Positions 7,800-60,301 of a stretch of DNA of 64,000 nt are shown here, in pieces. The translations under genes and the position numbers were made by a program. The stretch lies in the IMG/VR virus record IMGVR_UViG_3300035698_017111, positions 1-64,000 of that record; one strand, written 5' to 3'. The DNA is from a virus. How positions within the stretch are numbered: the first letter of the stretch is position 1; each line of letters starts with the position of its first letter. Under the pieces are notes generated by a model that had not been told where the DNA came from, made no database searches, and saw nothing but the letters and a program-made list of their open reading frames with translations.

Positions 7800-8312
7800 C
7801 TAGTATAGGAAATGGTGGTTGTCTATTTCCTTCTTAGTCATACCCTTTTCTTCTATAATTTTTTTTCTCATGAAGATGGGAAGCTCTATACTATGCATCA
7901 TACATACGACATCAGAGAAGTATATGTTGGTGCAAAAGAACTTGTTATCAAGTTCAGTAACCAGATAGGTAAAAAACGTTCCACCCTCTTCCTTGTCAAC
8001 AAAAGACAATATTATATTAACGCCATAAAAACTAGATAACACCGAAAACAAACCTTGGCTCGTTGGAATTGTCTTCGTATGGCCATCCATATAAACCTTA
8101 ACGTTAAGGAAGGATCTGGTGGAGAGTGGCACGTCAACAAAATACTCTGGATCCAAACATTCTACCAATGCCCCAAACCTAGTGCATGGTGTTCTTGGGT
8201 CATAACAATAAGCTCTAACACGTTTAACTCTAGTGAATTCACTAAAGAAATCATGAGATTTGGTATAGAAATTTAACAAACCACCAATTTTTTCAATTGC
8301 TATAGTGTTCAT
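7800..8312 (-). CDS. Divergent bifunctional-nuclease (DUF151/BFN)-like protein
   Basis: IPTSQGLF..GGTFFTYL..FSDVVCM..LPIFMRKKIIEE resembles the RPxTHDL..GTFYA.L..PSDAIAL..PIYV pattern. Confidence 0.5.
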   Translation of the reverse strand: MNTIAIEKIGGLLNFYTKSHDFFSEFTRVKRVRAYCYDPRTPCTRFGALVECLDPEYFVDVPLSTRSFLNVKVYMDGHTKTIPTSQGLFSVLSSFYGVNIILSFVDKEEGGTFFTYLVTELDNKFFCTNIYFSDVVCMMHSIELPIFMRKKIIEEKGMTKKEIDNHHFLY

Positions 8313-9529
8313 AGTTCTATTAGATTAATCCGTCCATGTAGGAAATGGTTTTCTTCAAATGGAGACTTCATCATTTCTTTTCTTATTTCTTTTGTGAAAT
8401 ATGGCTTAACAATATCAGCGTGTCTAAATGTCAACTTCCCATCAGATATGTTGCAAATGTCCACAGGACACTTAAACTTAGTTATTTTTATGTCATTATA
8501 AAGATTGCCAGAATAACGATACAATGATGCTTCTACACACAATTTCTCCAAAGCTAAAAAATCAGTCCTCAGAGTCATACACGAGCCAGAGAGACTCTTG
8601 TATTTTGTTGGGACTGCTTTTATTTTATAGAGATCATCTCTAGAAGATGAAGATGCTTCTCTCTCAATTATGAGATCATTACAATATAGCCATTCTTCTA
8701 TTGTACCAAAAGAAGAACCCTCTTTCTCGTATAATTCTTTTATTTTAGAAAGACAACTAATTCCAGACATCAAAACACAAGGAGCGTTTGTGTCTAAATT
8801 AATAGCAGTTAATAAAAATGTATTTGATGTTGGTTTGTCTAAAAGACACCCTAAACAAATAGCATCGCTACTTGATGAAGTAATTTTAGAAGAAACATCA
8901 TCCCATCCAGCATCTGTCATGGCCGCCATTTCCATAGAAAAGCTTCTGGTGTTTGCTTCAATACTCAATGCGATAGCTGGATCTATATTCTTAAAAACAG
9001 ACATTGGACAAAGAAAAGATCGATAAGCACCAGATGGTAAGGTATGACCACCCAACCTACCCGCATTATTACTCAGTGTTCCTGGTACAATCCGTCTTCC
9101 ATCCGACTTTCTAAAAGAACGCTTTAACATAAAATCATTAATATCATCTATCTTCAGCCAATGCATGTGGTACCTTTTTATATCACCAAAAAAATGCATT
9201 CTATACGAACCAGTTGGCGGGCCAAGTATCATATATGACAAAAGAGAGTTATTGGAACTCGACATCGATAGATTTATAAAATCATCCCTATAACCATCTT
9301 CTATGACAGTGGATTCTGGGACAACGGACAAAACAGAATCAGAATCAGAATCATCAGAACTATCGTAATCTTCATTTGGAACTTTTATAATATTATTTGA
9401 TTTGGTTAAAATAGCAGAGCCAGACCCCGTGTCACTAATAAAACAAATATTCTCATTGTCCTGATATATTGAAGAAAGAATCTTCTCTTCAGAATAAATG
9501 CCCTTCTTTCTCTGTAGATAATACCTCAT
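8309..9529 (-). CDS. Hypothetical protein ending GRINLIEL
   Basis: 406-aa ORF, AGGAGG RBS, ATGA coupling to the next gene. Confidence 0.7.
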   Translation of the reverse strand: MRYYLQRKKGIYSEEKILSSIYQDNENICFISDTGSGSAILTKSNNIIKVPNEDYDSSDDSDSDSVLSVVPESTVIEDGYRDDFINLSMSSSNNSLLSYMILGPPTGSYRMHFFGDIKRYHMHWLKIDDINDFMLKRSFRKSDGRRIVPGTLSNNAGRLGGHTLPSGAYRSFLCPMSVFKNIDPAIALSIEANTRSFSMEMAAMTDAGWDDVSSKITSSSSDAICLGCLLDKPTSNTFLLTAINLDTNAPCVLMSGISCLSKIKELYEKEGSSFGTIEEWLYCNDLIIEREASSSSRDDLYKIKAVPTKYKSLSGSCMTLRTDFLALEKLCVEASLYRYSGNLYNDIKITKFKCPVDICNISDGKLTFRHADIVKPYFTKEIRKEMMKSPFEENHFLHGRINLIEL

Positions 9530-9538
9530 GAGAGCCTC

Positions 9539-10381
9539 CTACCAAAGCCAATTAACGTCCTTCGATTCGTTCGACAACCTATCAATAGATGTGTTGCAAT
9601 TAACTTCCAATCTATCTATTCCAACATAATTTCTTCGTAATTTAGATGCAGCAACAAGAGTTGTCCCAGAACCAACAAATGGGTCAAGGACAACATCTCC
9701 TTCTTTAGAGAAAAGCTTTATAAAAAACTCAGGCAACTCTATTGGAAAAACAGCACTATGTGTCTTGTTGTGTGTCTCGGACGAAAGATGTAAAACATTC
9801 GATGGATACACCATGTCCCTGTCTACAAATTTTGACCTATCAACACCAAAACCACTTTTTGTTCTAGACTCATGACGAGAAAAATCATTCCCTTTCAAAC
9901 GGCCAAACCTTTCTTTGGTTGCTTCACCAACGGGGACCATCACCTCGTCTTGATACATATTGAAAAAATCACCCTTATTGAACTGCAAGACACGTTCCCA
10001 AGCATCTCTGAATCTATTTGGCCACTTCCCTGGGAAACAACTTTTCTTATGCCAACACCACTCTTCAGTCCACCACCAACCCATCTCGGTCAATGCTAAG
10101 ATTAATTTAAGAACATATGTGTGTCTCTGTTTTTTGACAACCTTCTCTTTAATGTTCAGTATAAAAGTACCATCATCAGACAGAACTCTTTTAAACTGTT
10201 CTGCCTTGGGGATAAACCAATCAACAAATTCATCGGGATGAATACCACCATAGGTTTTCTTCCGACTATCAGCATACGGTGGAGATGTTACAATAAGATC
10301 TATACAAGAATCTGGAAAAGACGAAAGAACGTCTTCGCAATCCCCAAGCAAAACCTTGTTTATTGGTCTATTTTCTTCCAT
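9539..10381 (-). CDS. DNA methyltransferase, beta class (N4-C/N6-A)
   Basis: VTSPPY precedes HSAVFP and VLDPFVGSGTT. Confidence 0.92.
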   Translation of the reverse strand: MEENRPINKVLLGDCEDVLSSFPDSCIDLIVTSPPYADSRKKTYGGIHPDEFVDWFIPKAEQFKRVLSDDGTFILNIKEKVVKKQRHTYVLKLILALTEMGWWWTEEWCWHKKSCFPGKWPNRFRDAWERVLQFNKGDFFNMYQDEVMVPVGEATKERFGRLKGNDFSRHESRTKSGFGVDRSKFVDRDMVYPSNVLHLSSETHNKTHSAVFPIELPEFFIKLFSKEGDVVLDPFVGSGTTLVAASKLRRNYVGIDRLEVNCNTSIDRLSNESKDVNWLW

Positions 10382-11478
10382 TATAGCTCCAAAAGATTAT
10401 ATCTGCCAAAAACCAAGTTCTTAATGTTTGAACTTGCTACTCTTTCAAGCTCCTCTAAACTCTGCCCTATCTCATTTTCAGATCGACATTCTCGATCCTT
10501 TTCCAAATCTACTTGCAGTTGATCTAAAACTTCCTCAATCTCCTGATCGTTATAGAAATTCAACGATCTCACCTTATCAATCATTGAAAGGAGTTTCTTG
10601 CCAGTTTTTTTAGAACACGCACTCTCTTCGTTGACCTCAATGCCCTTCTTTACTTCACCAACAATACGAAGGATCATTCCACGGATCTCACCAACCGTTG
10701 AAGAAATAAATCTATCAACATATTCCGTCTTGTTCTTTGCAATTTCTTCAATAACCCTCTTTTGAGTTTCGGCCTCAAAATCAACAACATCTCTTTTCTT
10801 AGATGCCTCATCTTTCAACAACAAGTCGTTCTCAACAACAGAAGGCAATGGAATAAAATAGAAAAAAGTATTATAATCAAAACTTCTACGAAACTCATCC
10901 GCAGATAAAATTCTTTGCCTCATCTGTTGAACCAAGTGTGCTTCGAACAACTCGTAGCTTTCATGCAATCCACCACCAGCGTCTTTGTCCCAAAGCATTT
11001 TAGCCAATCTCTTATACTCATCACATACCTCTTCAATTAATTGAGGATACTCCAACAAGACATTATCAGCCGTCTTAAAATATGTTGCTTTGATTTCTTC
11101 GTCTTTCTCTTTCCAGTCAGAAAAAACGGTACATGGTACGAATGTACCCCAGACAGTCTCCAATCCATATCTTTTGAGATTGCTTCTCGCAGAAGCTTCA
11201 ATCCTATTGAATAAATTTACTATTCTTTTTGGTAGAAGGTATTTGTTGCCAAGAACAAAATACTGACTCAAAAAATCTCTATAATCAGCCTGCTCACTTT
11301 CAAGTCCTATCTCTTCCTTCTGTATAGAACGAAGTCCACGCCAGCGTTTTACCTCTAACTTAACGATAACACCTCGTTTCATTAGAGGAATGGCCCAGTC
11401 TTCTATGTTGGTCCGTATTTCCTCAGAAGACATAGAAAGATCTTCTGCCAATTCCTTTACACTATCCTCAACAAGCAT
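10381..11478 (-). CDS. DUF3150-like protein ending GRYNLLEL
   Basis: V.LEVKRWRG..LGNKYLLP..FNRIEASARSNL.RYG..WGTFVP matches the recalled DUF3150 N-terminal pattern; helical C-terminus. Confidence 0.55.
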   Translation of the reverse strand: MLVEDSVKELAEDLSMSSEEIRTNIEDWAIPLMKRGVIVKLEVKRWRGLRSIQKEEIGLESEQADYRDFLSQYFVLGNKYLLPKRIVNLFNRIEASARSNLKRYGLETVWGTFVPCTVFSDWKEKDEEIKATYFKTADNVLLEYPQLIEEVCDEYKRLAKMLWDKDAGGGLHESYELFEAHLVQQMRQRILSADEFRRSFDYNTFFYFIPLPSVVENDLLLKDEASKKRDVVDFEAETQKRVIEEIAKNKTEYVDRFISSTVGEIRGMILRIVGEVKKGIEVNEESACSKKTGKKLLSMIDKVRSLNFYNDQEIEEVLDQLQVDLEKDRECRSENEIGQSLEELERVASSNIKNLVFGRYNLLEL

Positions 11479-14599: not shown

Positions 14600-16360
14600 T
14601 TAAAGTTCCAAATCTTTTCCAGGGGCACTGGCATCAGTGATATAGGTGTCGATGTCTCTGATTTCTTCTGGCTGAAAATCTGATGCCAAAACAGCTCGTC
14701 CCTTTTGCCATTCTCTCATAGTTCCTATCTGTTCACGCATCGTGCAGGACATTGGGATTGTCTCTTTAATGGCTTTCAAAATGTCTTCAGTTGTCAAATC
14801 CCGTTTCCCGTCATTGAAACAAGATACGATACCTGTATTGACAGCAGCTTCGATTTCAGCACCAGAAAAGTTGTTAGAACACTCAGCCATAGCTGCATAA
14901 TCAAGAGTCTTAACCAACTCTACATTGCCTTGCTTCTGCAATCTCTTACGTGCGTGGATCTCGAAAATATCCTGTCTTTCCTCACCAACAGGGAGGTCAA
15001 CGATAAAAATCTCATCCAAACGACCCTTCCTGAAAAGCTTTGGAGGACGACCAGAAATTTCGTTGGCTGTGAAAATACAGAACACCATACCTTCATGCTC
15101 AGACATCCACGAAGAGATGATACCGATCACCCTACTTGAAGTTCCACCATCAGAAGAGGCAGAATCTCCACCAGCCAAAAGGTTTTCAACCTCATCAAAC
15201 CAAAGGACACATGGGGCAATGGCATCGGCCAACTTCAAAGTAGCCCTTGTTCTTTGCTCACTATCACCAACATACATATTGTAGAGTTTCGACGCATCTA
15301 CACGAATCCCTGGGAGTCCCCATTCGTTGATAATAGCTTTTGCTGCACTGGACTTACCAGATCCCCATGGACCGAGTAGAAGAACTCCGTTTGGCAAATC
15401 ACAACCGAAATTCAAAGCCTCTTCTGACATGACTTGCTCACGTGCTTGAAGCCATCTTTTAAGATTCTGCACACCACCGATATCGTCAAGCTTCTCGCTT
15501 GGCTCAACATAATCACACAAACCACTCTTTTGGATAATTTGTCTCTTCTCCAAAGAAATGGTCTTTGGGACCAATGTTTTGTGTTGGATTGCAGACTTGG
15601 TGGTGGCATTCTCGATCTGATAAACAGTCATCCCTTTACAGGCATTAACCAACTGTTGTATTTCAGAATCTGAAAAATCCATTTGTGGAATAGGGGGATT
15701 AGCAGCTGCGAACTTCTCATTCAAACTCGTAATGATATGTTCCCGTAACGTGAACTCAATATGAGTTGAATCAACATATGTCCATTCTGTAACATGAACA
15801 AGGTTTTCCAACTCCGGTGGAATAATCTTACCAGAATTAGGCATTCCATCGTTTTTAGTAGAAAGAAGAATCAAAAGCTTTCGATCAGTTGCCGTTGTGA
15901 TTTCAGAGAAAATACGAAGTCTTCTCTGAACACCAGGCTCCGAAAGATAGTGGTGAAACTCTGTCAACACATAGATTGCGTCTTCGTTTTTACCCTCATT
16001 GATGATATAATCGAGAGCAGAAATGGGATCTTTCGATTCTTGGCTGATAGTTTTGAATTCAACCTGATGTCCATTTACAACCTGACGAACGATACCTCTG
16101 GAGATATCCCAAATAAACAGGTCTTTCTTATACTTCTGTGCAGTCGTACCGTGTTTACAGATATCATAAAGGATCTGAACAATGTTTCTCTCCTTCTCGT
16201 CAGACATGATGTAAACAACGGGATACCTAGCACGGATAAGAATCTTCAACTCTTCCGTTGCCTTCTCAAAAAGACTCATCTTTTTCTCTTTTTTCTCTGG
16301 AGTCTTTTTTTGAACCTTCTTCGATTTAACTGCTTTGTCTTTTGTGGCCGTTTCGGGCAT
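14600..16360 (-). CDS. Ycf46-like AAA+ ATPase ending GKDLEL
   Basis: LIRARYPVVY N-domain, EKRQIIQKSG, DIGGVQNLKRWL, GPWGSGKS, LWFDEVE, RKGRLDEIF; start moved to ATG 16360 (AAGGAGG RBS). Confidence 0.85.
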   Translation of the reverse strand: MPETATKDKAVKSKKVQKKTPEKKEKKMSLFEKATEELKILIRARYPVVYIMSDEKERNIVQILYDICKHGTTAQKYKKDLFIWDISRGIVRQVVNGHQVEFKTISQESKDPISALDYIINEGKNEDAIYVLTEFHHYLSEPGVQRRLRIFSEITTATDRKLLILLSTKNDGMPNSGKIIPPELENLVHVTEWTYVDSTHIEFTLREHIITSLNEKFAAANPPIPQMDFSDSEIQQLVNACKGMTVYQIENATTKSAIQHKTLVPKTISLEKRQIIQKSGLCDYVEPSEKLDDIGGVQNLKRWLQAREQVMSEEALNFGCDLPNGVLLLGPWGSGKSSAAKAIINEWGLPGIRVDASKLYNMYVGDSEQRTRATLKLADAIAPCVLWFDEVENLLAGGDSASSDGGTSSRVIGIISSWMSEHEGMVFCIFTANEISGRPPKLFRKGRLDEIFIVDLPVGEERQDIFEIHARKRLQKQGNVELVKTLDYAAMAECSNNFSGAEIEAAVNTGIVSCFNDGKRDLTTEDILKAIKETIPMSCTMREQIGTMREWQKGRAVLASDFQPEEIRDIDTYITDASAPGKDLEL

Positions 16361-16393
16361 ATCTCTTTCCTCCTTGGGTATCGTACTGGCCAG

Positions 16394-16422
16394 AGGATAA
16401 CAAAAAAAAAGTCTCAAGTCAA
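16394..16422 (-). promoter_or_regulatory. Sigma70-type promoter for the AAA-loader-dnaB operon
   Basis: TTGACT-N17-TATCCT with TGn extension, 34 nt upstream of ATG 16360. Confidence 0.65.
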
Positions 16423-17493: not shown

Positions 17494-18654
17494 CTACTTC
17501 AACGAAGATAGCACTCCAGGAACAGTTACCTGTTCCAGAGAATGTCTAACATCTTCTCCATAGGCGTTACTTCGGGCAGTCCCTGCCCTAGCTAAAATAT
17601 TAATAGATGCATTTAAATCTCTGTCCATCTCCAAACCACATTCAGGACAAACATGCATTCTATCACCTAATGTTTTTGGAACCTTAATACCACACTGAGA
17701 GCAATTCTGAGATGTGTTTCTAGGATCAACCAATATGACTTTAGCACCAGCTTCTTCCGCTTTGTACTGAGTCATGAGTATTAGTCTATTCCAAGAAGCA
17801 TCTTGGATATGTTTCGCCAACTTGTGATTTCTAACCATTCCTTTTATATTAAGGTTTTCAAAAACTATTGTTCCATACTTATTGACTAAACTTGTTGATG
17901 TTTTGTGCAGAAAATCATTTCTCTTATTCTTAATTGTTCTATGTGCTTTTGCGACCAGAATCCTTTGTTTGTTTCTGTTCAGAGAACCCTTGGTCTTTTT
18001 ACACAATTTCCTCTGCTCTTTTGCCAACTTATCCTGACCGTTCAATAACGTTCTTGGATTATCTACAACAGAACCATCTGACATTGACATGAAGTTTGAT
18101 ATCCCAACATCAATACCAACGGGTGGTTTTTGTGATATTTCTTTACTGACTTTAGTCTCAGCCGTCATAACAACATACCAATGATCCACATCTCTTAGTA
18201 CAATACATGTTTTTGGATTAGATGGTAAATCTCTAGACCAAATTATTTTAACACACCCTATCTTTGATAACCTAATTCTCTTTTTATCTTTTGATACAGC
18301 AAATCCTGATTGTGGATAGCAGAAAGAATTGAATCTTGATTCTGGCTTGAATCTTGGAAAACCAGCCTTTTTTCCGTTCTTTACTCTTCTGAAGAAATTA
18401 CGATAAGACTTATCTAGTCTCCTTAGAGTATCTTGAAGAACCTGTGAATGTACTTTGGTTTGATACTCGTTCTTTGATTTCGCCATAGAATTTGCTTGTT
18501 GAACATATTTCAGAGTTTCTTTAGATTCTTTATATTTCTCGATACGTTCTGCAAGAGAATTATTATACAAGAACCTACATGTAGTAAGAGTTCCAACAAG
18601 GATCTTCTCTTGCTCTTTTGTTGGATAGATTCTATATTTGAACGATTTAATCAT
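17494..18654 (-). CDS. tnpB: TnpB RNA-guided endonuclease (IS605 OrfB)
   Basis: SFKYRIYPTKEQ, GFPRFK, GIDVG, VFENL, TSQNCSQC..CPEC, DRDLNAS; RuvC catalytic residues intact. Confidence 0.95.
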   Translation of the reverse strand: MIKSFKYRIYPTKEQEKILVGTLTTCRFLYNNSLAERIEKYKESKETLKYVQQANSMAKSKNEYQTKVHSQVLQDTLRRLDKSYRNFFRRVKNGKKAGFPRFKPESRFNSFCYPQSGFAVSKDKKRIRLSKIGCVKIIWSRDLPSNPKTCIVLRDVDHWYVVMTAETKVSKEISQKPPVGIDVGISNFMSMSDGSVVDNPRTLLNGQDKLAKEQRKLCKKTKGSLNRNKQRILVAKAHRTIKNKRNDFLHKTSTSLVNKYGTIVFENLNIKGMVRNHKLAKHIQDASWNRLILMTQYKAEEAGAKVILVDPRNTSQNCSQCGIKVPKTLGDRMHVCPECGLEMDRDLNASINILARAGTARSNAYGEDVRHSLEQVTVPGVLSSLK

Positions 18655-20382: not shown

Positions 20383-20571
20383 ATGTCAATAATCAAAAGA
20401 GCCACAACAATACAAACACCACAAGTCGTATTAGAGAAGAAAGGCAGCTTAGTCTGTCATGTTTGCGGTAAAGAAATCAACGATATAGAAAATTTTCAAT
20501 GCGATAAAGCAAATTGCCCAATGAGAAAGACTGGAAAACATGACCAGACCGACGATCACAATAGGGAATAG
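20383..20571 (+). CDS. Small Cys-rich protein
   Basis: CHVC...CDKANCP. Confidence 0.5.
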   Translation: MSIIKRATTIQTPQVVLEKKGSLVCHVCGKEINDIENFQCDKANCPMRKTGKHDQTDDHNRE

Positions 20572-23182
20572 ATGGTGTAGTGTAGAAAACCTACCTTTAG
20601 GTGCGAATATAGCCTTATACGAAAACATATCTTTTGAAGTTGCGGGTGCTCAGTGGATCCGAATGGATCGCAAAGGCTGGGACGGCAGGAAGCACTTATT
20701 CCATAAAACGAAGAAAAACCCAAAACAAGGTGATTTTCTTACGGGATTGCTTTCTACGGTAATCGAAATACTTTACAAAGAATATGACGTTATCCCAATT
20801 ATAAAAGACACTAGAAGGAAGCCAAAAAAAACATTGGATCTTAATTGGGATGAAAAAGATTACAAGCTTAGGGATTATCAAAAAGAAGTTGTGGCCAATA
20901 GTATTGATAAAGGCAGAGGTGTGTTGGAATGTGCTACAGGTTCTGGCAAGACGATTATTGTGGCTAAGATTATTCAAGAACTTGGGGTTAAGCCGTTTAT
21001 ATTCTACGTCCTCACTAAAGATTTAATGTATCAGGCTCAAGAAAGATTAGAAGCAACAATGCCAGGATTAGAAGTTGGTATTGTTGGTGATGGTGTTTGT
21101 AAAACAAAAGACATCACAATAATGACGGTTCAAACAGCAGTTAGAGCATTTGATTCAAAGTTGAATTTTAAAAAAGATATGAAGAAGATGCAAGATGTTG
21201 ATGATGCCGATGTCTCTTCTATTTCGGAAGAAGACATGTCTCATATTGAAACGAAAAAAGAAGAAATTCAATATATTATAGAAGAGTCTAAAGGAATATA
21301 TTTTGACGAATGTCTTGTTGGTGACACACAAATCATAGACTATAATGGAATGTTGATTCCCATAGAAAATATACAAAATGGAGACCAATTAAATGGTGGT
21401 TTTGTAAGTAATAAGTTTAAAAAAAATGTTAATAGTACCTTGAAAATAACACATCAATGTGGGTTTTTAGAAACAACAAAAACACACCCAAACATATCTA
21501 TAAGAAAAACCTCATTAAAAAAAAGTAAAAAGAGATTAACCTGGGGTGTTTATGAAGATTTATCTCAAGAAGATGTTGAAGTTATTCCATCTCAAGATAT
21601 TGAAATTGGAGATTTTCTTCTTATCCCAGAAAAAATACCACATAACCCACCCAAAAAAAATAAAATGTCGCCAAATCTGCTTAGATTAATTTCTACTATA
21701 TTGTGTGACGGACATGTAGAAAAAAAAGGTTATAGGATTAAAATAAATGTCACCAAAGATCAAGAATGGTTTTCTTCTGTTTTTGAAGAAGGACTTATAG
21801 ATTTTGGACATCAAGTTGGATATGTTATTGATTTTGTAAAACAAACAGATAATAGGGGAAACCTTCTATTATATACAAAAGATAGAAATTTTTACTCATT
21901 TATTGTTAATTATATAGGAATACCAGCCGGAAAAAAATCTAACGATATACGAATTTATAATGAATTGTGGAACAATAACCTTGAAGACTTATCGCATTTT
22001 ATTGATGGTTGTGTGTCGTGTGAGGGAGATGTGTCAACAAGGAGACTAACCATTTCTTCTTGTTCATATTCCTTTATTCAAGACATACAAACTTTACTTC
22101 TTAAATTTGGTATTATTTCTACAATTAGAGAAAAAAAAAGAAAGAACATTAAACATAATACACTTTTTTTACTCTCAATAACAGGTAAATATTTATCAAA
22201 ATTTAATTCTCGTTTTAATATTTCAATGCAAAGAAAAGCAGAATCAATTCAAAGAGAATCGTGTGGTGTTTTTAACAGAACAGTCGATCTTGATGGAGTA
22301 AGATATTTTCTTAGTAAAATCAAAAAAATTGAAATCAAAAACAAAATGTCTGTTGTATATGATTTCACCACAACCACACATAAATTCATAGCGAACAACA
22401 CACTTACACATAACTGCCATCATATTCCGGCCAAAACATGTCAAGAAGTTATTTTGAGATCTCCAAATGGCTACTATACGTTTGGTGGTTCAGCAACTCC
22501 AGTAAGAGAAGATAAATCAGAGATGTTGATCGAAGCATTGTTCGGAAGAAAAAGAGCACAAATTACTGCATCTTATTTAATTGAAAGAGGTTTCCTTGTT
22601 AGTCCAGAAATATATTTTATTAAATTAAAGTCTGAAGATAAAAGAGTATCTACTTACGCTGAAGATTATAAAAAACACATTGTTGAGTGTGATGAAAGAA
22701 ACGGACATGTTATTACAATTGCAAAGTCTTTAATAACCAAAGGTTTGCCAACAATGGTCTTGGTCCAGAGAATAGAACACGGCCAATTTATTGCTGATCA
22801 AATACCTGGAGCTGTTTTCGTTTCAGGTGAATCTAAGAAAAAAGAAAGACAACAGTTTATTAAAGACTTTAGTGCTGGAAAGATCTCTGTTCTTGTTGCA
22901 ACAACAATAGCAGATGAGGGATTGGATATTCCAATTCTATCTGCGTTAATTCTTGCTGGTGGTGGTAAATCAAAAACAAGATGCAAACAAAGAGTCGGAA
23001 GGGTTATTAGAAAAAACAAAGACAAAAAATGTGCTCTCGTATTTGACTTCATGGATATTGGTAGATGGACTAAAAAACATTCTAAGAGACGCAAAAAGAT
23101 ACTAAAAGAAGAGCCAGAATTTCAAATTAAAAACTTTAGTTCATTCGAGAAAAAATTCAAATTAACGACTGACTTATTCTAA
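20540..23182 (+). CDS. SF2 DExH helicase (UvsW/XPB-like) with an intein in motif II
   Basis: LRDYQ, ATGSGKT, FDE|intein|[24 protein letters not shown]. Confidence 0.9.
21311..22414 (+). mobile_element. Intein (368 aa) with LAGLIDADG domain
   Basis: [34 protein letters not shown] followed by Cys+1; removal restores DECHH. Confidence 0.9.
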
Positions 23183-24255
23183 TGGACACAGACCCATATA
23201 AAATTCTTGGTGTGAACAAAGACGCCAGTGATGATGATATTAAGAAAGCTTTTAGAAAGCTTGCTGTACAACATCATCCAGACAAGCCAACTGGCAATGA
23301 AGATAAGTTCAAAGAGGTTTCTCTTGCTTATGAAACACTGTCTGATCCGAACAAAAGAAGACAGTATGATGCGTTTCAAAATGGAGGTTATCATCAAGGT
23401 CAATTTAGAAACTCCTCCTCTGCTGGTAATTTTTCAGCAATATTTGAAACTCTTTTTGGTCAAGGCGGAGGCCCACAATTTACACAACAACGAAAACCAA
23501 ACTTAGATATATCTGCACAAATACCATTAACACTTGAAGAAATATTTTCTGGTGTAGAGAAAACGATAAAATATAAGAGACGTGCTATTTGTAATAAATG
23601 TAATGGAAGTGGTGCTAAAGACGCTAGTGATATTAAAACATGTTCAAGCTGTAATGGAACTGGTAAGACTTCACAAAGACCAACACCAGTATTTAATATT
23701 ATTACAGACTGTATGGAATGTTCTGGTACGGGCAAGATTACAGGTAATCCATGTGATTTATGTTCTGGTTCTGGATACATGCCACAGTCTGTTGAGTTGC
23801 CAATCAGAATACCTCGTGGGGTTCCACTAAACATTAGAGTTGTACAGTCGAAAATGGGACACCAAGATCCGGTTTATGGTTTTGGTGATATGTATATTTC
23901 ATTTTCAATGATTAGACATGAAATATATGAGAAACACAACGAGCATGTTTTGTGTAAAGTCCCAATTCCTATTCATCTTTGTATGATTGGTGGAGAGATT
24001 GAAGTTCCAACATTACACGGCACAAAAAAAATAACAATACCAATTGGAGCTAAGGACGGAACAAGAATAAGAGTAGCCGGATCCGGTTTACCAAGACCAA
24101 ATAATCCTGCAATTTTTGGAGATCATATTGTGGAATGTCGGGTAGAAAATATAAATAGGCTGCCAGATGGCTTGATGGAAGAACTTAGAAAGATTGAGAC
24201 TAACGAGGAATTATACCCAGAGTGTTCGAAATTCTTTACAAGAAGCCATAAGTAA
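23182..24255 (+). CDS. dnaJ: DnaJ chaperone
   Basis: J domain with HPD, four CxxCxGxG repeats, C-terminal VPTLHG. Confidence 0.93.
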
Positions 24256-40341: not shown

Positions 40342-40342
40342 T

Positions 40343-44946: not shown

Positions 44947-46257
44947 ATGAGATTTACCGTCAGAAAACACGAATTAGACAAGGCAGTTTCTGTTATTAGG
45001 GGCTCTAATGCTCTTGGTAGGAAAGAAGATGAGATGCTTTGTCTCCTCTCAATTGAAGCAACCAATACGGATGGGAAAAACAAAGTAGAATTGTTAGCTA
45101 CAAACATTGGCGTTTGGGCTAGTGCCTGTGTTACCGATGAGGATTTTTCTGATCTTGGCGAAGAGGCGTCCAAGAACTTTTCTGTTGAAAAGCCTGGTAG
45201 AGTTCTTGTTGATGGACATTCGTTCCTCAATAGAATTGTCACCTATCCGCAAAACTCAATCATTCATTTCACACTCGAAAGCAAGAGCTCTAAAGGTAGT
45301 GAAAAATCTGAGTTCCTTCAAGCCAAATACGAAGTTAAAAACGCACAAAAAACAAAATGGAAGACATGTGGGTTCCTTCTAAAGAATTCCGATATATTTG
45401 AAACAATGCCTCCAGACGAGGAGAGGAAAGAAGCTTCTGTCCCAGCTAGCCATCTTTACGAAGCTGTAAATTCTGTATCGTTTGCTGCTGGCTCTGATGA
45501 AACAGATCATTATCTTTGGGGTTGTCAGGTTCAGGTTTACGGTAATGAGGTTTCTGCATTCTCTTCAGACAGATCTAGATTGTGTTGGTTTGATGAGAAG
45601 GGTAGAGATAGAGAGGGTGAACCAGAACTCGTCTTTGTTCCAGTAAAGGAAAGTTTTTTGTCTGCATTGAAAAATATGGAGATGACAGAACAAATTGACA
45701 TTGAAGCTGGAGAGAGATACACCATCATTAAGCAGAGAAATCAATGGCATGCTGTTCCTAATGTTATGAATCCAGAAGAACTCCCAGACTGGAGAGAAAT
45801 TGCACAGAAGTTAAAGAAGACTGCTGTGTCTACTGTTCGAGTCCCAAAGAAAAGTATTCTTGATTTTATCAAGTCGGCACTCACTGAATCAACAGCTCAA
45901 TTTGGTATTGGCTTGTCGTTTGATTCTGAAAACAAAACAGTATCCTTCTCTATAGATAGGATTGAAGTCGGCAATGTTCTTTATTCGTATATTGATGAAG
46001 GTGAGTCTCTGGACGATGCAGATTTTACTGGAGATATTGATTCAAAAGTTATTCTTACAATTGAAAATGTTAGAGATATTATATCGAGATACTCTGACGA
46101 GATGGTTATATTTAGGGTAACCAATGGAACGTCTCCTGTTGAGATAATGAGTAATGGAGATACTATAGAATACATTAGCAGTACTGTACGTTCGTTGTCT
46201 GAAGAACACCCAAGTGAAGAATCGAAAGAAGAACCGAATGAAGAAACAGAAGAGTAG
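44947..46257 (+). CDS. dnaN: Divergent DNA polymerase III beta sliding clamp
   Basis: MRFTV, L.ATN, VEKPGRVLV, VSFAAG.DE..YL.G, SSDRSRL, PDWREI. Confidence 0.75.
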   Translation: MRFTVRKHELDKAVSVIRGSNALGRKEDEMLCLLSIEATNTDGKNKVELLATNIGVWASACVTDEDFSDLGEEASKNFSVEKPGRVLVDGHSFLNRIVTYPQNSIIHFTLESKSSKGSEKSEFLQAKYEVKNAQKTKWKTCGFLLKNSDIFETMPPDEERKEASVPASHLYEAVNSVSFAAGSDETDHYLWGCQVQVYGNEVSAFSSDRSRLCWFDEKGRDREGEPELVFVPVKESFLSALKNMEMTEQIDIEAGERYTIIKQRNQWHAVPNVMNPEELPDWREIAQKLKKTAVSTVRVPKKSILDFIKSALTESTAQFGIGLSFDSENKTVSFSIDRIEVGNVLYSYIDEGESLDDADFTGDIDSKVILTIENVRDIISRYSDEMVIFRVTNGTSPVEIMSNGDTIEYISSTVRSLSEEHPSEESKEEPNEETEE

Positions 46258-47248
46258 TATAAGCTTCTATTGGTTGATCGGGGATCGTTTTCTTTGTATT
46301 GAGAGAAAAAAAGACATAATAGAAAGTATCTCAGGTAAAAAGAAACATACTGTTAAATATATCAAATCAACCGATTCTGCAGATGATTTCTGCAGTAAAA
46401 TGAGCGTTAGAGATCTTTTTGGGTCTTCGAAAACCATCTATGTGTACGATGGTCAGATACCAGAACCAGCTAAGACAATTGGATTCATACAATGTCTTGA
46501 AAGCGATTCTGTGCTTGTCGTTGTTACGGACAAGGTTGATAAGAGAAGCAAGATATACAAAGACCTCAAGAACCATGTTGAAGAATTTCCAACGGTTATG
46601 AGTGGTCCGTATCCAGATAGGTCTAAGATTAAGGTTGTTGAAAGGATTATAAAAAAAATGGTAAGGTGGGATGGTGATGATGGGGTTTTTGATTTCATCT
46701 TCCAAACATGTGGATATGACGCTGGTAAGACTGTAAATGAAATTAAGAAGATATGTATCTATAATGACGGTTCATGTCCACAAGAGTTCGCAGATATCAT
46801 TGGAATAATGTCAGATAGAGATGATCCAGATATAACTAAATTTGTTATGTCTTTGTCTGATGGTGACTCAGAATCTGCTATTAGTTTGTGTGATAAGATT
46901 ACAAGTTCTGGTAATTTTGAACAGATAAAGATGCCTGTATTTGGTGCAATTCTAGAACAGGCATTCTTCACATTGTATTGTGTTATGGCAGAGAAATCTG
47001 GTGCTGAAAATGCTGATCAAGTTGGAAAGTTTATTTCTGAAACATGGCAAAAAAAGGGTAAAAATGTCAGTGCAGTTTCAATGTCAAGGAGATACTCATA
47101 TTCCAGAGATCAATTAGATGGATTGAGTGTTAAAAGAGCAAGCCAAAGAGTAGAACATATTTACAAGGCTATGAAGAAATGTTTGTTGAATGTGGGAACG
47201 CCTAAACACGTCTTTCACGAACTTGTCCTTTCGTATAAATACATATAA
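46238..47248 (+). CDS. holA: DNA polymerase III delta (HolA)-like clamp-loader subunit
   Basis: FYWLIGD, DLFGS, DKRSKIYK.L, G.D...NEIKKI..Y; follows dnaN. Confidence 0.7.
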   Translation: MKKQKSSISFYWLIGDRFLCIERKKDIIESISGKKKHTVKYIKSTDSADDFCSKMSVRDLFGSSKTIYVYDGQIPEPAKTIGFIQCLESDSVLVVVTDKVDKRSKIYKDLKNHVEEFPTVMSGPYPDRSKIKVVERIIKKMVRWDGDDGVFDFIFQTCGYDAGKTVNEIKKICIYNDGSCPQEFADIIGIMSDRDDPDITKFVMSLSDGDSESAISLCDKITSSGNFEQIKMPVFGAILEQAFFTLYCVMAEKSGAENADQVGKFISETWQKKGKNVSAVSMSRRYSYSRDQLDGLSVKRASQRVEHIYKAMKKCLLNVGTPKHVFHELVLSYKYI

Positions 47249-47306: not shown

Positions 47307-47810
47307 ATGTCTATTATTCTGTCCCTAGATCCTGCAAGTTTAAAGAATCTGGGGCTTTGTGTTGCTAAATTTATGAAAAAGGAAATGAGGATAATTGATA
47401 GTTTTACAAACGTTTTTGATGTTGATCTTGAAAACAAAGACAAAAGACTTGTTGAGACGAAGATTCTAATAGAGGCTCTTATTGACAAGCACAAAGTAGA
47501 TACGGTTGTTTTTGAAAGATCAATGGGGTTTGGTAAGGCTTTTGTTCGTAATCAACTCAGCGAACAAACAGGTATTGTTAAACTTGTTGCTTACGAAAAA
47601 GGCGTTCCGGTAGTCGAAATATCTCCCAAGACAGCGAAGAAGAGGATTACTGGTAGCGGAAATGCTACCAAGAGAGAGGTGATTAACGCTGTTTTAGAGA
47701 CATTTAGCATGAATAAAAAAGACCTATCCTCTGAGCATGAGGCAGATGCCATTGCGATGGCCTATACCCACTTTAAGATGGTAAGAGAAGATGAGTGTAA
47801 TAAAAAATGA
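47307..47810 (+). CDS. ruvC: RuvC Holliday junction resolvase
   Basis: ILSLDP, VVFE, KK.ITGSGNATK, HEADAIAMA. Confidence 0.9.
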   Translation: MSIILSLDPASLKNLGLCVAKFMKKEMRIIDSFTNVFDVDLENKDKRLVETKILIEALIDKHKVDTVVFERSMGFGKAFVRNQLSEQTGIVKLVAYEKGVPVVEISPKTAKKRITGSGNATKREVINAVLETFSMNKKDLSSEHEADAIAMAYTHFKMVREDECNKK

Positions 47811-49308
47811 AAAGGCTGTAAGTATAATGGCGATTAAAGCATTAGAAGAATTTTTGCTATTGGCAGAAGTTATATTTATTTGTTTAGACAAGGATGCAAC
47901 TATTACTGCAATCAATGGTCATGGTGTTGACATCTTGGAATGTGATGACGAGTCTGACGTTATTGGTCTTAATTGGATAGAAGATTTTATTCCAGAGTAT
48001 TTCAAAGACAATATAAGAAAACTTTTTTTATCAAATATTAAAAACCCAGATACGGTGTCTGTCTACCATCAGAATCCAATATTGACTAAAAAAGGAAATG
48101 TAAAATGGATTTCCTGGACCAATGCAATTAGAGAAAGTGGTGATGGAGAATATGTTTCTGTAAGTTGTGGTGTTGATATCACCCAATGGAAACATCTTGA
48201 GGTAAGGATAGGTGAGGGTCTTGATAAACAAAGAAAAAGTGAAGAGACATTAAAATCCATTACTGAATCAACACAAGATTTCATTATTCTTAAAGACACA
48301 AGTTCTAGGTATTTGTATGTTAACAAATCTACTACAGATGCTTTTAACATACCTTATGAAGAATGGGTTGGAAGAACTAGGGAAGAAATATTTAGACCTA
48401 ATACAAAAGATAAAGATAAGTCAACACAAAGAACAGTTGAAAGTCTTGAAAAAAAAATAATTGAAACTGGTGAAACTGTTACGCATGAACTCGAAATGCT
48501 TGGAAAACAATTTCATGTTGTTTACTCTCCTGTAAAAAACGAAAATGGTAAAGTTGAGATGATTTCTGTTATATTTAGGGATATTTCTAAATTAAAAGAA
48601 GCAGAAGAAGAGTTAAAGAAACGAAATCAAAACTTAGAAGATTTTACCGATGTTGTTTCGCACGATCTTCAAGAACCATTGAGAAAAATAACCTCATATG
48701 TTGAAAGAATAAAAAAAGAAACTCCAATGAAGGATCGCAGGAAGTCTTCACAGCATATGGGTAAGATAATTGATGCATCTCAAAGAATGCAAAAATTGAT
48801 TGATGATCTTTTAGAATTCTCAAGAATAAACCTTGAAGAAGATTGTAACTTTTTCCAAAAGGTTAACGTAGAGGATGTGATAAACGAAGTGATGTCAGAT
48901 CTTGAAATAAGGATAGAGTCGTCTAAAGCTAAAATATCTGTTGAAAACATGCCAACAATAGAAGCAGATCGAACTCAAATGAGACAGCTTTTCCAAAATC
49001 TAATTAGTAATTCTATTAAGTTTAAAAAGGAAAATGTCGCTCCAATTATTAATATATCTTGTGAGATGGTCAATGACATGGCCATCATTTTTGTAACTGA
49101 CAATGGAATAGGATTTGATGAAAAGTACAAAAATAAAATCTTCTTGCCCTTTAGAAGACTTTATAGACATACGAAGTACCCCGGATCTGGCATCGGATTA
49201 GCCATTTGTAAGAAGATAGTCAATGCACACTGTGGATGTATTGGTGTCAAAAGCAAAATCGGAGAGGGATGTTCTTTTGTCATTAGTCTACCTATGAAGC
49301 AGGATTAA
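47791..49308 (+). CDS. Cytoplasmic PAS-PAS sensor histidine kinase
   Basis: Two PAS/PAC regions; SHDLQEPL, QLFQNLISNSIKF, DNGIG, GSGIGLAI; no TM helix. Confidence 0.93.
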   Translation: MSVIKNEKAVSIMAIKALEEFLLLAEVIFICLDKDATITAINGHGVDILECDDESDVIGLNWIEDFIPEYFKDNIRKLFLSNIKNPDTVSVYHQNPILTKKGNVKWISWTNAIRESGDGEYVSVSCGVDITQWKHLEVRIGEGLDKQRKSEETLKSITESTQDFIILKDTSSRYLYVNKSTTDAFNIPYEEWVGRTREEIFRPNTKDKDKSTQRTVESLEKKIIETGETVTHELEMLGKQFHVVYSPVKNENGKVEMISVIFRDISKLKEAEEELKKRNQNLEDFTDVVSHDLQEPLRKITSYVERIKKETPMKDRRKSSQHMGKIIDASQRMQKLIDDLLEFSRINLEEDCNFFQKVNVEDVINEVMSDLEIRIESSKAKISVENMPTIEADRTQMRQLFQNLISNSIKFKKENVAPIINISCEMVNDMAIIFVTDNGIGFDEKYKNKIFLPFRRLYRHTKYPGSGIGLAICKKIVNAHCGCIGVKSKIGEGCSFVISLPMKQD

Positions 49309-49808: not shown

Positions 49809-50750
49809 ATGGGCAATAACGATATCCTCAGAGTATTATTAATAGAGGATGACGAAGAAGATTATGAACTCACGAAAGATCTTGTAAATGAAATTAAAAG
49901 AACAAAAATAGAATTAGATTTTTGTGAGACGTATGATGAGGGTCTTGAAAAAATAAAAAGTGGTGAATACGATGCATATCTTGTTGATTGCAAATTGGGT
50001 TTAGATGACGGACTTGACTTGATTGACGAAGCTAAACTCCACGAATGTAGATCTCCAATAATAATACTCACCGGACAAAGAAATGGCAATATTGATATAA
50101 AGGCACTTAACAGAGGGGCAGATGATTATCTGTCTAAAAGGAATACCGATGCTTCTCTTTTGGAAAAAAGCATTCTGTATTCTATTGAGAAAAAGAAACT
50201 TGAAAGAAAACTAAAAGATAGTCAAACTCTTCTATCGTCCATATTAGACACGACAAAAGTTGGTATGTGTCTTATTGATAAAAATAACAATATTGTAAAA
50301 ACAAATCCAGCATTGTTGTCAATGTTTAATTTAGAAGATGTTTCTATTAATGTCTTTGAAAGTACATTTTTGTTATCAGAACACAACTCTTCACCATTTC
50401 GTAACAAATCTTTGCAAAAAGAACTTCCAGTTGGAAACCCTATAGACCTATCACTATTACATAACGATGGAGAATATGTTGTAAAATGTCTCCTAAATAG
50501 TATTGTAAAAGACTGCACCATTACAATAAGTGATCTTTCTTATGTTAACGGTAGTGTTCAAGAATTTATTCTAATTAATTTTATAGACATTACCAAACAG
50601 AAAAAAACAGAAAAAAGTCTAGTTGATACACAAATAAAACTACAAAGATCTATTGAAAAACATGGCATTAAAACAGAAGATCCAAATGTTATGATGGATT
50701 TGATTGACTTGGAAATCTGTAGGATGCGAGGAGAGTCAAGCTGTGTTTGA
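49809..50750 (+). CDS. Response regulator REC plus PAS, no output domain
   Basis: LLIEDD, LVDCKLG..DG, ILTG, GADDYLSK; PAS-like region ending DITKQK. Confidence 0.85.
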   Translation: MGNNDILRVLLIEDDEEDYELTKDLVNEIKRTKIELDFCETYDEGLEKIKSGEYDAYLVDCKLGLDDGLDLIDEAKLHECRSPIIILTGQRNGNIDIKALNRGADDYLSKRNTDASLLEKSILYSIEKKKLERKLKDSQTLLSSILDTTKVGMCLIDKNNNIVKTNPALLSMFNLEDVSINVFESTFLLSEHNSSPFRNKSLQKELPVGNPIDLSLLHNDGEYVVKCLLNSIVKDCTITISDLSYVNGSVQEFILINFIDITKQKKTEKSLVDTQIKLQRSIEKHGIKTEDPNVMMDLIDLEICRMRGESSCV

Positions 50751-57463: not shown

Positions 57464-58543
57464 ATGTCTTGGAAATACCGCAAAGCCTCACCATTTGGAA
57501 GAGATCCATTTGGAGAAGGAGAACTCTCGGACAAGGTTCGAGTAGACCCATTCGGCAATTCAGGTGGTGAAGTTCATCATGGTCTTTTTGAACCAAGTTC
57601 TGGTGCACATCATCCAAACGATCCATTTAGTGAAGACGATAAGGTACCGACTGTTGAAGAACGTCTTAAGAATAAGAAGAATAAGAAAAAAAGGAGACAT
57701 GTGTCTCCACGTATAAAACGAGACAAATTTCGTGTTAGTTCGTTTGGTAAAAAGTATGCACAGTGGGGAGAAGTTGGTCCTAAGATGCCCATATGGGAAC
57801 GAAGTAATTGGGTCTCAGACACATACAAAGATATTGTTAATCAAGAAAAATCATCTGCACCTGCTGCACCCGCTGCACCAACAGAACAAGAACAACCCGC
57901 TCCCAATGAACAACCAGAAGCAAACCCGGTAAACACCGTTCTGGATGCCACTGTGACCATCCAATCAGTATTGGGAGAAGTCTCTGAAATTGGGAGCGGT
58001 TTTTTCATTGCTGAAAATATTGTTTTAACATGTGCCCATGTGGCTCTTCCTGGTGGACAGGAAGGACAGACACCGCAGATCAGTGTTAAGCACGGAGAAA
58101 AAGACTATACGGGATCTTTGTGGGCTTATGATATGTCCATAGATGCTGCAATTTTAGTAGTAGATGATCCTAGTTTCCAATCCAGTAATTTCCTGTCTCT
58201 TGGTAACTCCAGTGAAACTCAAATAGGTGAAGAGATCATTGTTATTGGAACTCCACTTGGGTTTGAGAATGTTGTTGGTAAGGGTATTGTATCAAGTGCT
58301 CCTATAAATTACACAGAAGGACAGGACGATAAGTCTTATATTTTTATATCATCCAGTATTTCACCAGGGAATAGTGGTGGTCCAGTAGCAAGAACAGCAG
58401 ATTCAGCAATTATCGGAATTGCAGCAGCAGTAATCAGTGATGCGGACTCTGGCGGAGCTGGTGGTTTAAATGCTGCAGTCCCAATCGATAAGGTTAAGCC
58501 ATTTTTAGAACAAAATGGTGTAAAATTCGGATTTAAACAGTAG
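57464..58543 (+). CDS. Trypsin-like (S1/HtrA-type) serine protease with long N-terminal extension, no PDZ
   Basis: GSGFF, LTCAHV, DAAIL, IGTPLG, ISPGNSGGP. Confidence 0.9.
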   Translation: MSWKYRKASPFGRDPFGEGELSDKVRVDPFGNSGGEVHHGLFEPSSGAHHPNDPFSEDDKVPTVEERLKNKKNKKKRRHVSPRIKRDKFRVSSFGKKYAQWGEVGPKMPIWERSNWVSDTYKDIVNQEKSSAPAAPAAPTEQEQPAPNEQPEANPVNTVLDATVTIQSVLGEVSEIGSGFFIAENIVLTCAHVALPGGQEGQTPQISVKHGEKDYTGSLWAYDMSIDAAILVVDDPSFQSSNFLSLGNSSETQIGEEIIVIGTPLGFENVVGKGIVSSAPINYTEGQDDKSYIFISSSISPGNSGGPVARTADSAIIGIAAAVISDADSGGAGGLNAAVPIDKVKPFLEQNGVKFGFKQ

Positions 58544-59390: not shown

Positions 59391-59393
59391 GGA

Positions 59394-59420
59394 GAGGTAA
59401 CCCTTGGGTCGCCTCTTTTT
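59394..59420 (+). terminator. Intrinsic-terminator-like hairpin
   Basis: GAGGTAACCC-tt-GGGTCGCCTC followed by TTTTT. Confidence 0.55.
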
Positions 59421-59437
59421 ATTTTGGTGATCTAAGA

Positions 59438-60301
59438 ATGAGAGGAAGTCATATGAGTCGAACGTATTGGACAATGAGAAACGAAAAGGCATCTGCAGGA
59501 CAACGGTTGGCTACAGAACTACACACTAGGCAGATTGAATATCTAAAGAAACATCCAGATACAAAAGATGTTACAAAAGAAAATCAAGATGTGATAGATT
59601 ACGTTGGTAATGATACGGATTGTGATACCGTGAGGGCTTCCTCGATCCTAAGTACCACAAATAGGGCAATGGACAGTGCCGTGAAGCATGTTCGAAAAGA
59701 GATAATGAATAGCTTCAAAACAGATACGGCATCAGAAGACCAGTCAGATACCCTTCTTGGACTTGATCAACAAGCTTCAGAAATAAAGTGTGCAGCTGCT
59801 TTCTTTTCTATCCCCACTAAAGAGATTTTCCTAATCCGCAACATTCATCTTAGGAAAGATCCAAGAGATAAGGGTAAAAAGAAATCAAAGAAAAAAACAA
59901 GGCCAGATAGATTTAAACTTGCAGAATGGCTGAATATAAAACACAAATCTGCTATAGCCCACGAGCTGTATCACATGCAAATGGACATGAAGTGTCATGC
60001 AGAAAATCCAATGTTGCACGAAGAGTATGCGTATGGTAACATGGTTGGATGGTGTCAGGCCAATGGTTTGACTGATGATGAAATAGCTGAGTTTATCATT
60101 TTATCATTTGGACGTATGGTTGCCATGTCGAAATATCCTTCACTTCTCGTATTAAAAGACTGGAAGACGTTGGAGAAGAGGTCCATAGAAGAGGCACATA
60201 ATGTAATAGAACAATTTGTAAATCAGAACCAAAGCATACGGGATAATGAAGATGTAAAAGAGGTACAAATCGCAGATAGGCGTTTTGATCTTGAACTATA
60301 G
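59438..60301 (+). CDS. Putative zincin metallopeptidase ending RRFDLEL
   Basis: AAAFF..IAHELYH..EEYAY. Confidence 0.65.
   Translation: MRGSHMSRTYWTMRNEKASAGQRLATELHTRQIEYLKKHPDTKDVTKENQDVIDYVGNDTDCDTVRASSILSTTNRAMDSAVKHVRKEIMNSFKTDTASEDQSDTLLGLDQQASEIKCAAAFFSIPTKEIFLIRNIHLRKDPRDKGKKKSKKKTRPDRFKLAEWLNIKHKSAIAHELYHMQMDMKCHAENPMLHEEYAYGNMVGWCQANGLTDDEIAEFIILSFGRMVAMSKYPSLLVLKDWKTLEKRSIEEAHNVIEQFVNQNQSIRDNEDVKEVQIADRRFDLEL

Follow-up and report, generated by a model that had tools for sequence, protein, structure and literature searches.

That unrelated proteins can dock through a common C-terminal tail is already well known as a principle. HbYX tails are found on PAN, on the Rpt proteins, and on archaeal Cdc48, and the mycobacterial Mpa and Bpa have the end GQYL in common. 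The C-terminal XB peptide of SspB tethers this adaptor to the N-domain of ClpX, and the ssrA tag and the self-degradation signal at the C-terminus of ClpA are comparable short signals. The C-terminal tail of p97/Cdc48 is bound by PUB and PUL domains, and p97 cofactors use VIM, VBM, and SHP motifs. Clamp-binding C-terminal motifs that are common to unrelated proteins are likewise well established (T4 gp45 partners, QL[SD]LF), and gp2.5 and gp4 of T7 have acidic tails. Here, we analyzed a tail of this general type in the first 64 kb (positions 1 to 64,000, hereafter the window) of a viral contig of 146,772 bp with a G+C content of 38% (IMG/VR record IMGVR_UViG_3300035698_017111). Four of the encoded proteins, among them a Ycf46-type AAA+ ATPase, end with a basic residue followed by [LI]-E-L, and the sequence comparisons described below make it likely, with a probability of about 75%, that this tail is a functional docking tag tied to a module of the ATPase and proteins of the families DUF1257 and DUF2997.

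The Ycf46-type ATPase (14600–16417, minus strand) ends with GKDLEL, and K-D-L-E-L is encoded at 14603–14617. The other three bearers are putative clients: a DUF3150 protein of 365 aa (10381–11478, minus strand), whose GRYNLLEL end is encoded at 10384–10407; a 406-aa protein with no family assigned (8309–9529, minus strand; GRINLIEL at 8312–8335); and a 287-aa protein with the HEXXH motif H-E-L-Y-H (59438–60301, plus strand; RRFDLEL at 60278–60298), whose gene is the first of the DUF1257-DUF2997 group. An earlier note on this DNA, made from the letters alone, had given exactly these four ends and had described a motif with a basic residue before [LI]-E-L at the free end, on otherwise dissimilar proteins and with differing codons, all of which holds. 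BLASTP found no similarity between the 406-aa protein and the DUF3150 protein, and paralogy of these two 8-mer bearers was therefore rejected. Pfam recognized DUF3150 (PF11348, 7.6e-12, 45.5 bits versus a gathering cut-off of 24.9) and AAA, and nothing in the other two proteins. The 406-aa protein had no match in Pfam or NCBIfam and no homologue in a search of 5.8 billion proteins, and neither for this protein nor for the HEXXH protein could a function be derived from Pfam, NCBIfam, or the ESM Atlas. Beyond the window, an open reading frame (ORF) of 118 aa without a Pfam match (genome positions 118795–119151, plus strand; L232:795-1151) ends with KKKEIEL and may be a fifth bearer, with the tag in its short form; over these five genes, the codon at position -3 reads ATA, TTG, TTG, CTT, and ATT. 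A metallophosphoesterase of 473 aa (24289–25710, plus strand; Pfam Metallophos, 7e-8) does end with YDLELDRE as had been reported; with three more residues after the tag, it is only a candidate for a sixth bearer. The tail of the ATPase in other lineages sometimes has one to five extra residues after the motif.

Conservation in orthologues is the decisive evidence and is stronger than any enrichment within this one genome. Orthologues of all four proteins retain the tail at body identities of 23–59% and despite synonymous codon changes, and as the same tail is written with different codons and stop codons, the conservation is at the level of the peptide. DUF3150 homologues with 40–50% identity end with GRINLVEI, GRFNLLEL, and GRISLLEF. 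The DUF3150 tail is kept in P0001–P0004, L006, and L007, and between the window and L006 the stop codon and all three leucine codons have changed. The gene next after DUF3150 in L007 encodes a syntenic orthologue of the 406-aa protein (23% identity, E = 1e-16), which ends with NTDFLEI. An intein-bearing orthologue of the ATPase in L008, which has 56% identity and whose gene precedes those for the same IstB-like, DnaB, and primase proteins, ends with MSNLEL. The sole homologue of the HEXXH protein that was found, P0007 (44% identity), ends with ARWDLEF after a hydrophilic linker that cannot be aligned. A 263-aa HEXXH homologue encoded near the ATPase in two large viral contigs, G006 and G007, aligns across the HExxH region (E = 3e-6) and ends with D-R-F-D-I-L-D-L.

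The tail is also a signature of the family of Ycf46-type ATPases, as judged from sequence. Relatives numbered 37,280 in an exhaustive profile search, and the best 150 representatives (E-values from 1e-218 to 1e-75) cover residues ~50–580, which is full length including the non-catalytic N-terminal half. Among these 150, 22 end exactly with hydrophobic-[DE]-hydrophobic, compared with an expectation of 1.6% (P = 1e-14), and 51 have this pattern inside the last eight residues, usually preceded by Arg or Lys. The bacterial loci include cyanobacterial ycf46-type genes, and bacterial and archaeal copies end with RRKIEF, ERELEL, RQMEL, or QIDIEI; Corndog gp96, a phage member of the family, ends with VRVLDL. 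Two further classes of tail are seen in the family, namely an acidic run followed by Leu (DEDDL, EDEEL) and the basic R-R-R-[IV]-M-[SN]. The ATPase genes with these other tails are found in loci L013, L014, L018, L024, L035, L021, L028, and L051, and also in L022, L025, L026, L070, and L089. The motif definition used here misses both classes, which may be variants of the one docking tail. In actinophage-like loci, a gene of ~265 aa just downstream of the ATPase gene (family 6, including Corndog gp95) has hydrophobic-[DE]-hydrophobic near its C-terminus; it has no HExxH motif and no relative in the phage analyzed here.

The neighbors of ATPase homologues often carry the same tail in the 80 viral loci that we examined around such homologues. 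Two contigs, G006 and G007, were read whole. In G006 (351 kb), the ATPase ends with AKDLDL, and 35 of the 514 ORFs (~7%) end with R-x-x-[IM]-L-D-[LI], the logo being R-[F]-[ED]-I-L-D-[LI]. When their last 12 residues are removed, these tagged proteins fall into 28 unrelated families, almost none of which Pfam recognizes, and the bearers in both contigs are small. The Arg, Leu, and stop codons vary among the 35 tags, and the motif occurs internally only twice in all 514 proteins. In G007 (298 kb), 30 ORFs end with LDL, and 40 end with hydrophobic-[DE]-hydrophobic versus 8.1 expected (P = 4e-16). The 8-mers of the window match the logo residue by residue (R at -7, a hydrophobic residue at -6, D, E, or N at -5); RRFDLEL is one residue shorter than the logo, and KDLEL is the form of the ATPase, as it is in G006. 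The negative control was G001, a 296-kb relative that lacks both the ATPase and DUF2997 although it has DUF3150, ClpP, DnaJ, and a Clp ATPase. It has no over-represented C-terminus (8 versus 4.8 expected, P = 0.11), and its DUF3150 is untagged. More generally, DUF3150 proteins of phages lacking the ATPase end with NFVDIE or DIIDIN; in G001 and G002, both of which lack the ATPase and DUF2997, the protein is encoded beside a Clp ATPase and DnaJ and ends with NFVDIE. A conserved row of DUF3150, a small ORF, a Clp ATPase, and DnaJ is seen in the jumbo relatives (L001, L002).

In line with a common system, the tail of the ATPase is closer to the client tails of its own genome than to those of other lineages (8 lineages, last five residues; 16 of 5000 permutations reach the score). 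DUF3150 proteins encoded beside the ATPase take the local spelling in five lineages, with SRAATLDL on the ATPase and SRASMLEL on the client, or KRRIQR and KRRIVR, as examples. This co-variation of the family tail with the client tails, together with the absence of the tag where the ATPase and DUF2997 are absent, supports the proposal of the earlier note that genes up to 50 kb apart belong to one putative system, here the ATPase gene and the HEXXH/DUF1257/DUF2997 group.

The same observations speak against the view that the tail has no function and reflects chance, hidden paralogy, or a nucleotide-level signal, such as a ribosome-binding site, promoter, or terminator, that encodes E-L before the stop codon. 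A Shine-Dalgarno-like GGAG or a TATAAT does overlap the last codons in two of the five genes, and the enrichment within this genome is modest after post hoc correction. However, a nucleotide-level cause is ruled out by the codon and stop codon variation among the orthologues and among the 35 tags of G006, the bodies of the bearers are unrelated, and the family-wide enrichment is strong, so that we give hardly any credence to a tail without function. An Apyc1 (anti-Pycsar, counter-defence) homologue is encoded beyond the window (genome positions 133377–134153, plus strand; L232:15377-16153; PF23023, 7e-28); like its counterparts in G006 and G007, it ends with hydrophobic-[DE]-hydrophobic (VVDL, VFEF, IFEI) and without Arg, which may be a trait of this family and not the tag.

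The tag can be compared with the tails of proteasome activators. There, the last residues of an AAA+ ring plug in and unrelated proteins with the same tail use the same pockets, and the ATPase analyzed here has a Cdc48-like fold. In contrast to HbYX, the tags end with L-E-L or L-D-L, without Tyr and without the pattern of a penultimate Tyr, and the number of small proteins bearing them, up to ~35 per genome, is far beyond a set of alternative caps. No proteasome family turned up in Pfam and NCBIfam scans of the window proteins, which did not include a search aimed at 20S subunits.

SspB, ssrA, and ClpA are similar in that short C-terminal peptides direct proteins to an AAA+ machine and that the ATPase can carry such a peptide itself. 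The earlier note had proposed the phage-encoded Clp protease as one possible destination of the tagged proteins. In support of this idea, or of delivery to an HtrA-like protease by a PDZ domain, the ClpP gene is two genes away from that of the 406-aa client, the phage encodes both an HtrA-like protease and a Clp ATPase that has a Clp_N domain, and a C-terminal hydrophobic-x-hydrophobic end has the form of a class II PDZ ligand. However, there is a double dissociation: the tag-bearing genomes G006, G007, G009 (100% complete), and G010 (complete) have no ClpP, whereas the tag-less G001 has ClpP, a Clp ATPase, and DnaJ, a comparison that concerns phage genes and not host ClpP. As phage ClpP does not track the tag, the idea of a phage Clp degron fails, and the L-A-A-type end of an ssrA-like degron is not seen either. 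The PDZ_2 model (PF13180), which was the PDZ model searched and which was applied to phage proteins, had no match in G000, G006, G007, G009, or G010, and the HtrA-like protein matches Trypsin_2 only. Recognition by phage Clp, or by the HtrA-like protease through a PDZ domain, is thus very improbable. The tag further differs from the SspB, ssrA, and ClpA signals in that the ATPase and its clients have one motif in common and in that a ClpX-type N-domain is lacking.

This lack became apparent from the architecture of the ATPase. Counted from a TTG start codon, the protein has 605 aa, although translation may really begin at a Met further on. It matches AAA (PF00004, 2.5e-24) and AAA_lid_3 and consists of a degenerate D1-like domain without a Walker A motif and one active-type AAA domain, with the single Walker A motif (GPWGSGKS, residue 349), an invariant D408-E409, and a Y-V-G pore loop. 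An AlphaFold2 model (mean confidence, pLDDT, of 90) aligned as a whole with D1-D2 of p97/Cdc48 (TMq ~0.6), its N-terminal half having the D1-like fold, and showed no separate N-terminal substrate-binding domain and no ClpX-type N-domain. The last four residues (602–605) had a pLDDT below 50, and such a disordered tail in a monomer model is as expected for a linear motif. Docking of the tail in cis was rejected, as the monomer model leaves these residues below that value. The protein resembles p97/Cdc48 in the two-domain D1-D2 fold of a Cdc48-type ring and in the probable choice of partners through short linear motifs, but differs in that the D1-like domain has no Walker A motif, the N-domain is missing, and the motif sequence is unrelated. 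PUB or PUL domains did not turn up among the scanned window proteins, for which neither domain was searched directly.

The canonical Y-V-G pore loop and the one active AAA domain would also suit a ring that reads the tag directly as a C-terminal degron or handle, so that threading would start at the tail of a client, which would be unfolded or removed from DNA. The tail of the ATPase would then be an autoregulatory pseudo-substrate comparable to the ClpA self-degradation signal, and this explanation rivals the docking tag only in the choice of the receptor. It is in agreement with the strict position of the tag at the free end, with its restriction to genomes with the ATPase, with clients encoded in the replication operon, and with the recurrence of DUF3150 and HEXXH proteins as clients. 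However, the one to five residues after the motif in some lineages and the model without an N-terminal substrate-binding domain do not fit well, and the ATPase itself is the most constant bearer, including in cellular operons without visible clients. Because of this constancy, a docking tail fits better than a degron. That the tag is a degron or handle is therefore unlikely in our view, and it is similarly doubtful that the ATPase ring is the reader of the tail.

Untagged members of the module are slightly ahead of the ring as candidates for the receptor. The DUF1257 (Ycf35)-like protein (117 aa, 60313–60666, plus strand) and the DUF2997 protein (70 aa, 60677–60889, plus strand; PF11211, 33.8 bits versus a cut-off of 24.1) are encoded directly after the HEXXH protein, so that both partner families of the ATPase are present together at 60313–60889. 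The DUF1257 model of Pfam itself (PF06868) did not match the window protein at an E-value of 0.01. However, a hidden Markov model (HMM) built from 35 DUF2997/AAA+ neighbors, with the window protein left out, found the protein as the sole match in the proteome (9.8e-11), and PF06868 matched 30 of the 36 members in the alignment of this HMM, so that the product of 60313–60666 is best read as a divergent DUF1257 member. A tag was found on none of 42 DUF1257 homologues, and a tag-like end on only 1 of 27 DUF2997 homologues. DUF2997 occurs once per genome in all six viral genomes with the ATPase (G000, G006–G010) and in none of the three without it (G001, G002, G005). In cellular loci, a tailed ATPase goes with adjacent DUF1257/DUF2997 genes (12 of 17 versus 4 of 27; P = 3e-4, uncorrected for phylogeny). 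Cellular operons run AAA+-DUF1257-DUF2997, and in archaeal loci with consecutive DUF1257, DUF2997, and AAA+ genes, the ATPase is tagged, which points to a receptor inside the module and not to a bacterial host factor. We therefore favor a receptor within the module, as DUF1257 and DUF2997 are constant and untagged, the operons are shared in cells, and phage ClpP, clamp, and PDZ domains do not fit. DUF1257/DUF2997 would be the first candidate for this receptor, an assignment that we consider tentative and somewhat short of even odds.

The cyanobacterial gene slr0374 (ycf46) is part of a stress-responsive operon. The phage contains the same three families as the cyanobacterial and plastid Ycf46-Ycf35-DUF2997 genes, and a duf2997-ycf35-fed7 cluster is listed in PMC4284462. 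In contrast to the cyanobacterial and plastid genes, those of the phage lie in two places ~45 kb from each other, and proteins beyond these families bear the tail too.

Several points weigh against a docking tag of this module. The ORFs were called crudely as the longest non-overlapping ones, which gave 173 in the whole genome and 71 in the window. The enrichment that the earlier note had proposed to test for is seen, as 5 of 173 ORFs end with [LI]EL versus 0.13 expected from the internal frequency (binomial P = 3e-7), and 4 of 71 in the window alone (P = 3e-7). However, in a post hoc control, in which all exact C-terminal tripeptides were scored and the smallest P was kept, 21 of 2000 random draws from internal tripeptides did as well as the real termini (~1 in 100), and the signal within this one genome is therefore moderate only. 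In addition, the short forms KDLEL of the ATPase and KEIEL of the 118-aa ORF have only 3–5 residues in common with the 8-mer. The co-occurrence of the ATPase with DUF2997 is based on nine viral records, some of them incomplete or not independent of one another, and the ATPase-bearing ones were found by means of the ATPase; several of the compared viral records are incomplete. Viral loci also show the reverse link between tail and adjacency (2 of 19 versus 13 of 31), probably because other spellings, such as RRRIMS and the acidic DEDDL, fall outside the motif definition and because large phages have these genes scattered over the genome. Finally, the AlphaFold2 model of the DUF1257-like protein (pLDDT 81) had KA1-type domains as the best VIA-align match (Z = 8.5), which is within the background of this tool, and Foldseek gave nothing below an E-value of 0.001.

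A receptor outside the module, such as a host protein, the membrane, or the assembling capsid, would make the tag a localization or packaging signal for the ATPase and its clients. The ~30–35 small bearers of unknown function in G006 and G007 would be as expected for early, host-directed, or packaged proteins, and some DUF1257 homologues start with a hydrophobic, membrane-like segment. On the other hand, each genome has tags spelled in line with its own ATPase tail, and a host receptor peculiar to one lineage is unlikely, given that ATPases from many bacterial phyla and from archaea carry this tail at their C-terminus. An outside receptor is altogether improbable, and more so than the reading by the ring discussed above. 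The homologues with the membrane-like N-terminal segment (L185:9505-10038, L127:9736-10194, L151:9555-10019, and L075:11609-12163) come from Planctomycetota- and Verrucomicrobiota-type loci and one phage and hint that the module can be membrane-anchored.

As three bearers are encoded in the replication operon and the phage has its own DnaN (44947–46257) together with gamma/tau-like and delta-like clamp-loader subunits, we also considered whether the tail binds the beta sliding clamp. The tails of T4 gp45 partners, of QL[SD]LF proteins, and of T7 gp2.5 and gp4 are comparable in that unrelated replication proteins dock on one hub by a common C-terminal peptide. However, the motif is different: the Leu required by the clamp motif is replaced by an acidic residue in the tag, the penultimate residue is [DE], and Gln is missing, so that it fits neither Q-L-[SD]-L-F nor Q-L-x-L-x-L. 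Moreover, the tag is found on archaeal homologues and on dozens of small proteins of G006, and it follows the ATPase and DUF2997 rather than replication genes. Tails that do look canonical are separate from the tag and end the last DnaE piece (T-S-L-F) and a UvsW-like helicase (T-D-L-F). Binding of the tag to the clamp is thus as remote an explanation as Clp or PDZ recognition. The DnaE piece (749–1393, minus strand; K-T-S-L-F) and the helicase (20540–23182, plus strand; T-T-D-L-F) have ends resembling the beta-clamp-binding pentapeptide, which suggests a second C-terminal code in this genome, apart from the tag. The clamp-loader genes are located at 37852–38967 and 46214–47248, alongside DnaN.

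The replication operon runs on the minus strand from 19.7 kb down to 0.3 kb, in the order TnpB, a 342-aa ORF, the Ycf46-type ATPase, an IstB-like ATPase, DnaB, a primase zinc ribbon, DUF3150, an N6/N4 methylase, the 406-aa ORF, a BFN-domain nuclease, ClpP, and the split DnaE. Its TnpB or IS605 OrfB-type gene (17494–18654, minus strand), with OrfB_IS605, Cas12f1-like TNB, and HTH domains, lies just upstream of the ATPase part of the operon. The plus strand encodes the UvsW-like helicase with an intein, DnaJ, the phosphoesterase, ribonucleotide reductase, a ClpA/B-like ATPase, and the gamma/tau-like and delta-like clamp-loader subunits, followed by DnaN, a sigma factor, a histidine kinase with a response regulator, terminase, the HtrA-like protease, the HEXXH protein, the DUF1257-like protein, DUF2997, and a DEAD-box helicase. 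The two-component pair consists of a PAS histidine kinase (47791–49308, plus strand) and a PAS-domain response regulator (49809–50750, plus strand). The proteostasis set is large for one phage, with ClpP (7111–7791, minus strand), the ClpA/B-like double AAA+ protein with a Clp_N domain (33673–36054, plus strand), a full DnaJ (23182–24255, plus strand), the HtrA-like protease without a PDZ domain (57464–58543, plus strand), and a phage metallopeptidase (36058–36528, plus strand). In the nearest relative, LAGLIDADG inteins split the ATPase gene (L008:589-4563) and the primase zinc-ribbon gene (L008:7156-8889), whereas the inteins of the window are found in the helicase (20540–23182) and a DNA methylase (40262–42355), so that intein positions differ between close relatives. 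Close relatives of the phage were not found in the GenBank phage set, nor in IMG/VR with single-protein queries or the HEXXH alignment, and a metagenome scan gave three short contigs only.

A literature search found no paper describing this tail, its motif strings, or a tail for Ycf46, DUF1257, DUF2997, or DUF3150, and none giving a function of the AAA+/DUF1257/DUF2997 module. With the docking tag as the favored explanation, we propose that the motif is a linear one at the free C-terminus, with a basic residue, a hydrophobic residue and [DEN], and [LI]-[LIV]-[DE]-[LIF], in full R-h-[DEN]-h-h-[DE]-L (h, hydrophobic). The first bearer would have been the ATPase, whose bacterial, archaeal, and phage copies often end with [RK]-x-h-[DE]-h. 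Phages would then have copied the tail onto other proteins, each lineage with its own spelling, and in the phage analyzed here onto the DUF3150 protein, the 406-aa protein of the replication operon, and the HEXXH protein. As the tail is copied onto many proteins, its bearers would compete for, or gather at, one receptor site. The untagged DUF1257-DUF2997 pair may act as a multivalent receptor that holds the ATPase and its clients by their tails, and the Cdc48-like ring with its canonical pore loop could then remodel or unfold the clients held in this way. As the tag links DUF3150, the HEXXH protein, and the replication operon, it suggests a segregase-like role at the phage replisome.

In a broader and more speculative proposal, to which we give less than even odds, the tail of the ATPase is a portable address label, so that any protein gaining these 5–8 residues would become a client of an AAA+/DUF1257/DUF2997 remodeling machine. 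Extraction, unfolding, or timed removal of proteins would then be tag-directed and ubiquitin-free, and the same logic would explain the role of Ycf46, Ycf35, and DUF2997 in cyanobacteria and plastids. If this is true, the client set comprises replication-module proteins in the phage analyzed here and ~7% of the proteome in jumbo relatives, and dozens of phage ORFs per genome would become members of one pathway. Such a tag would also be a compact, transferable peptide for the controlled remodeling or removal of proteins. The client list of an AAA+ module that is widespread in cyanobacteria, plastids, many bacteria, archaea, and phages would then be readable directly from sequence.

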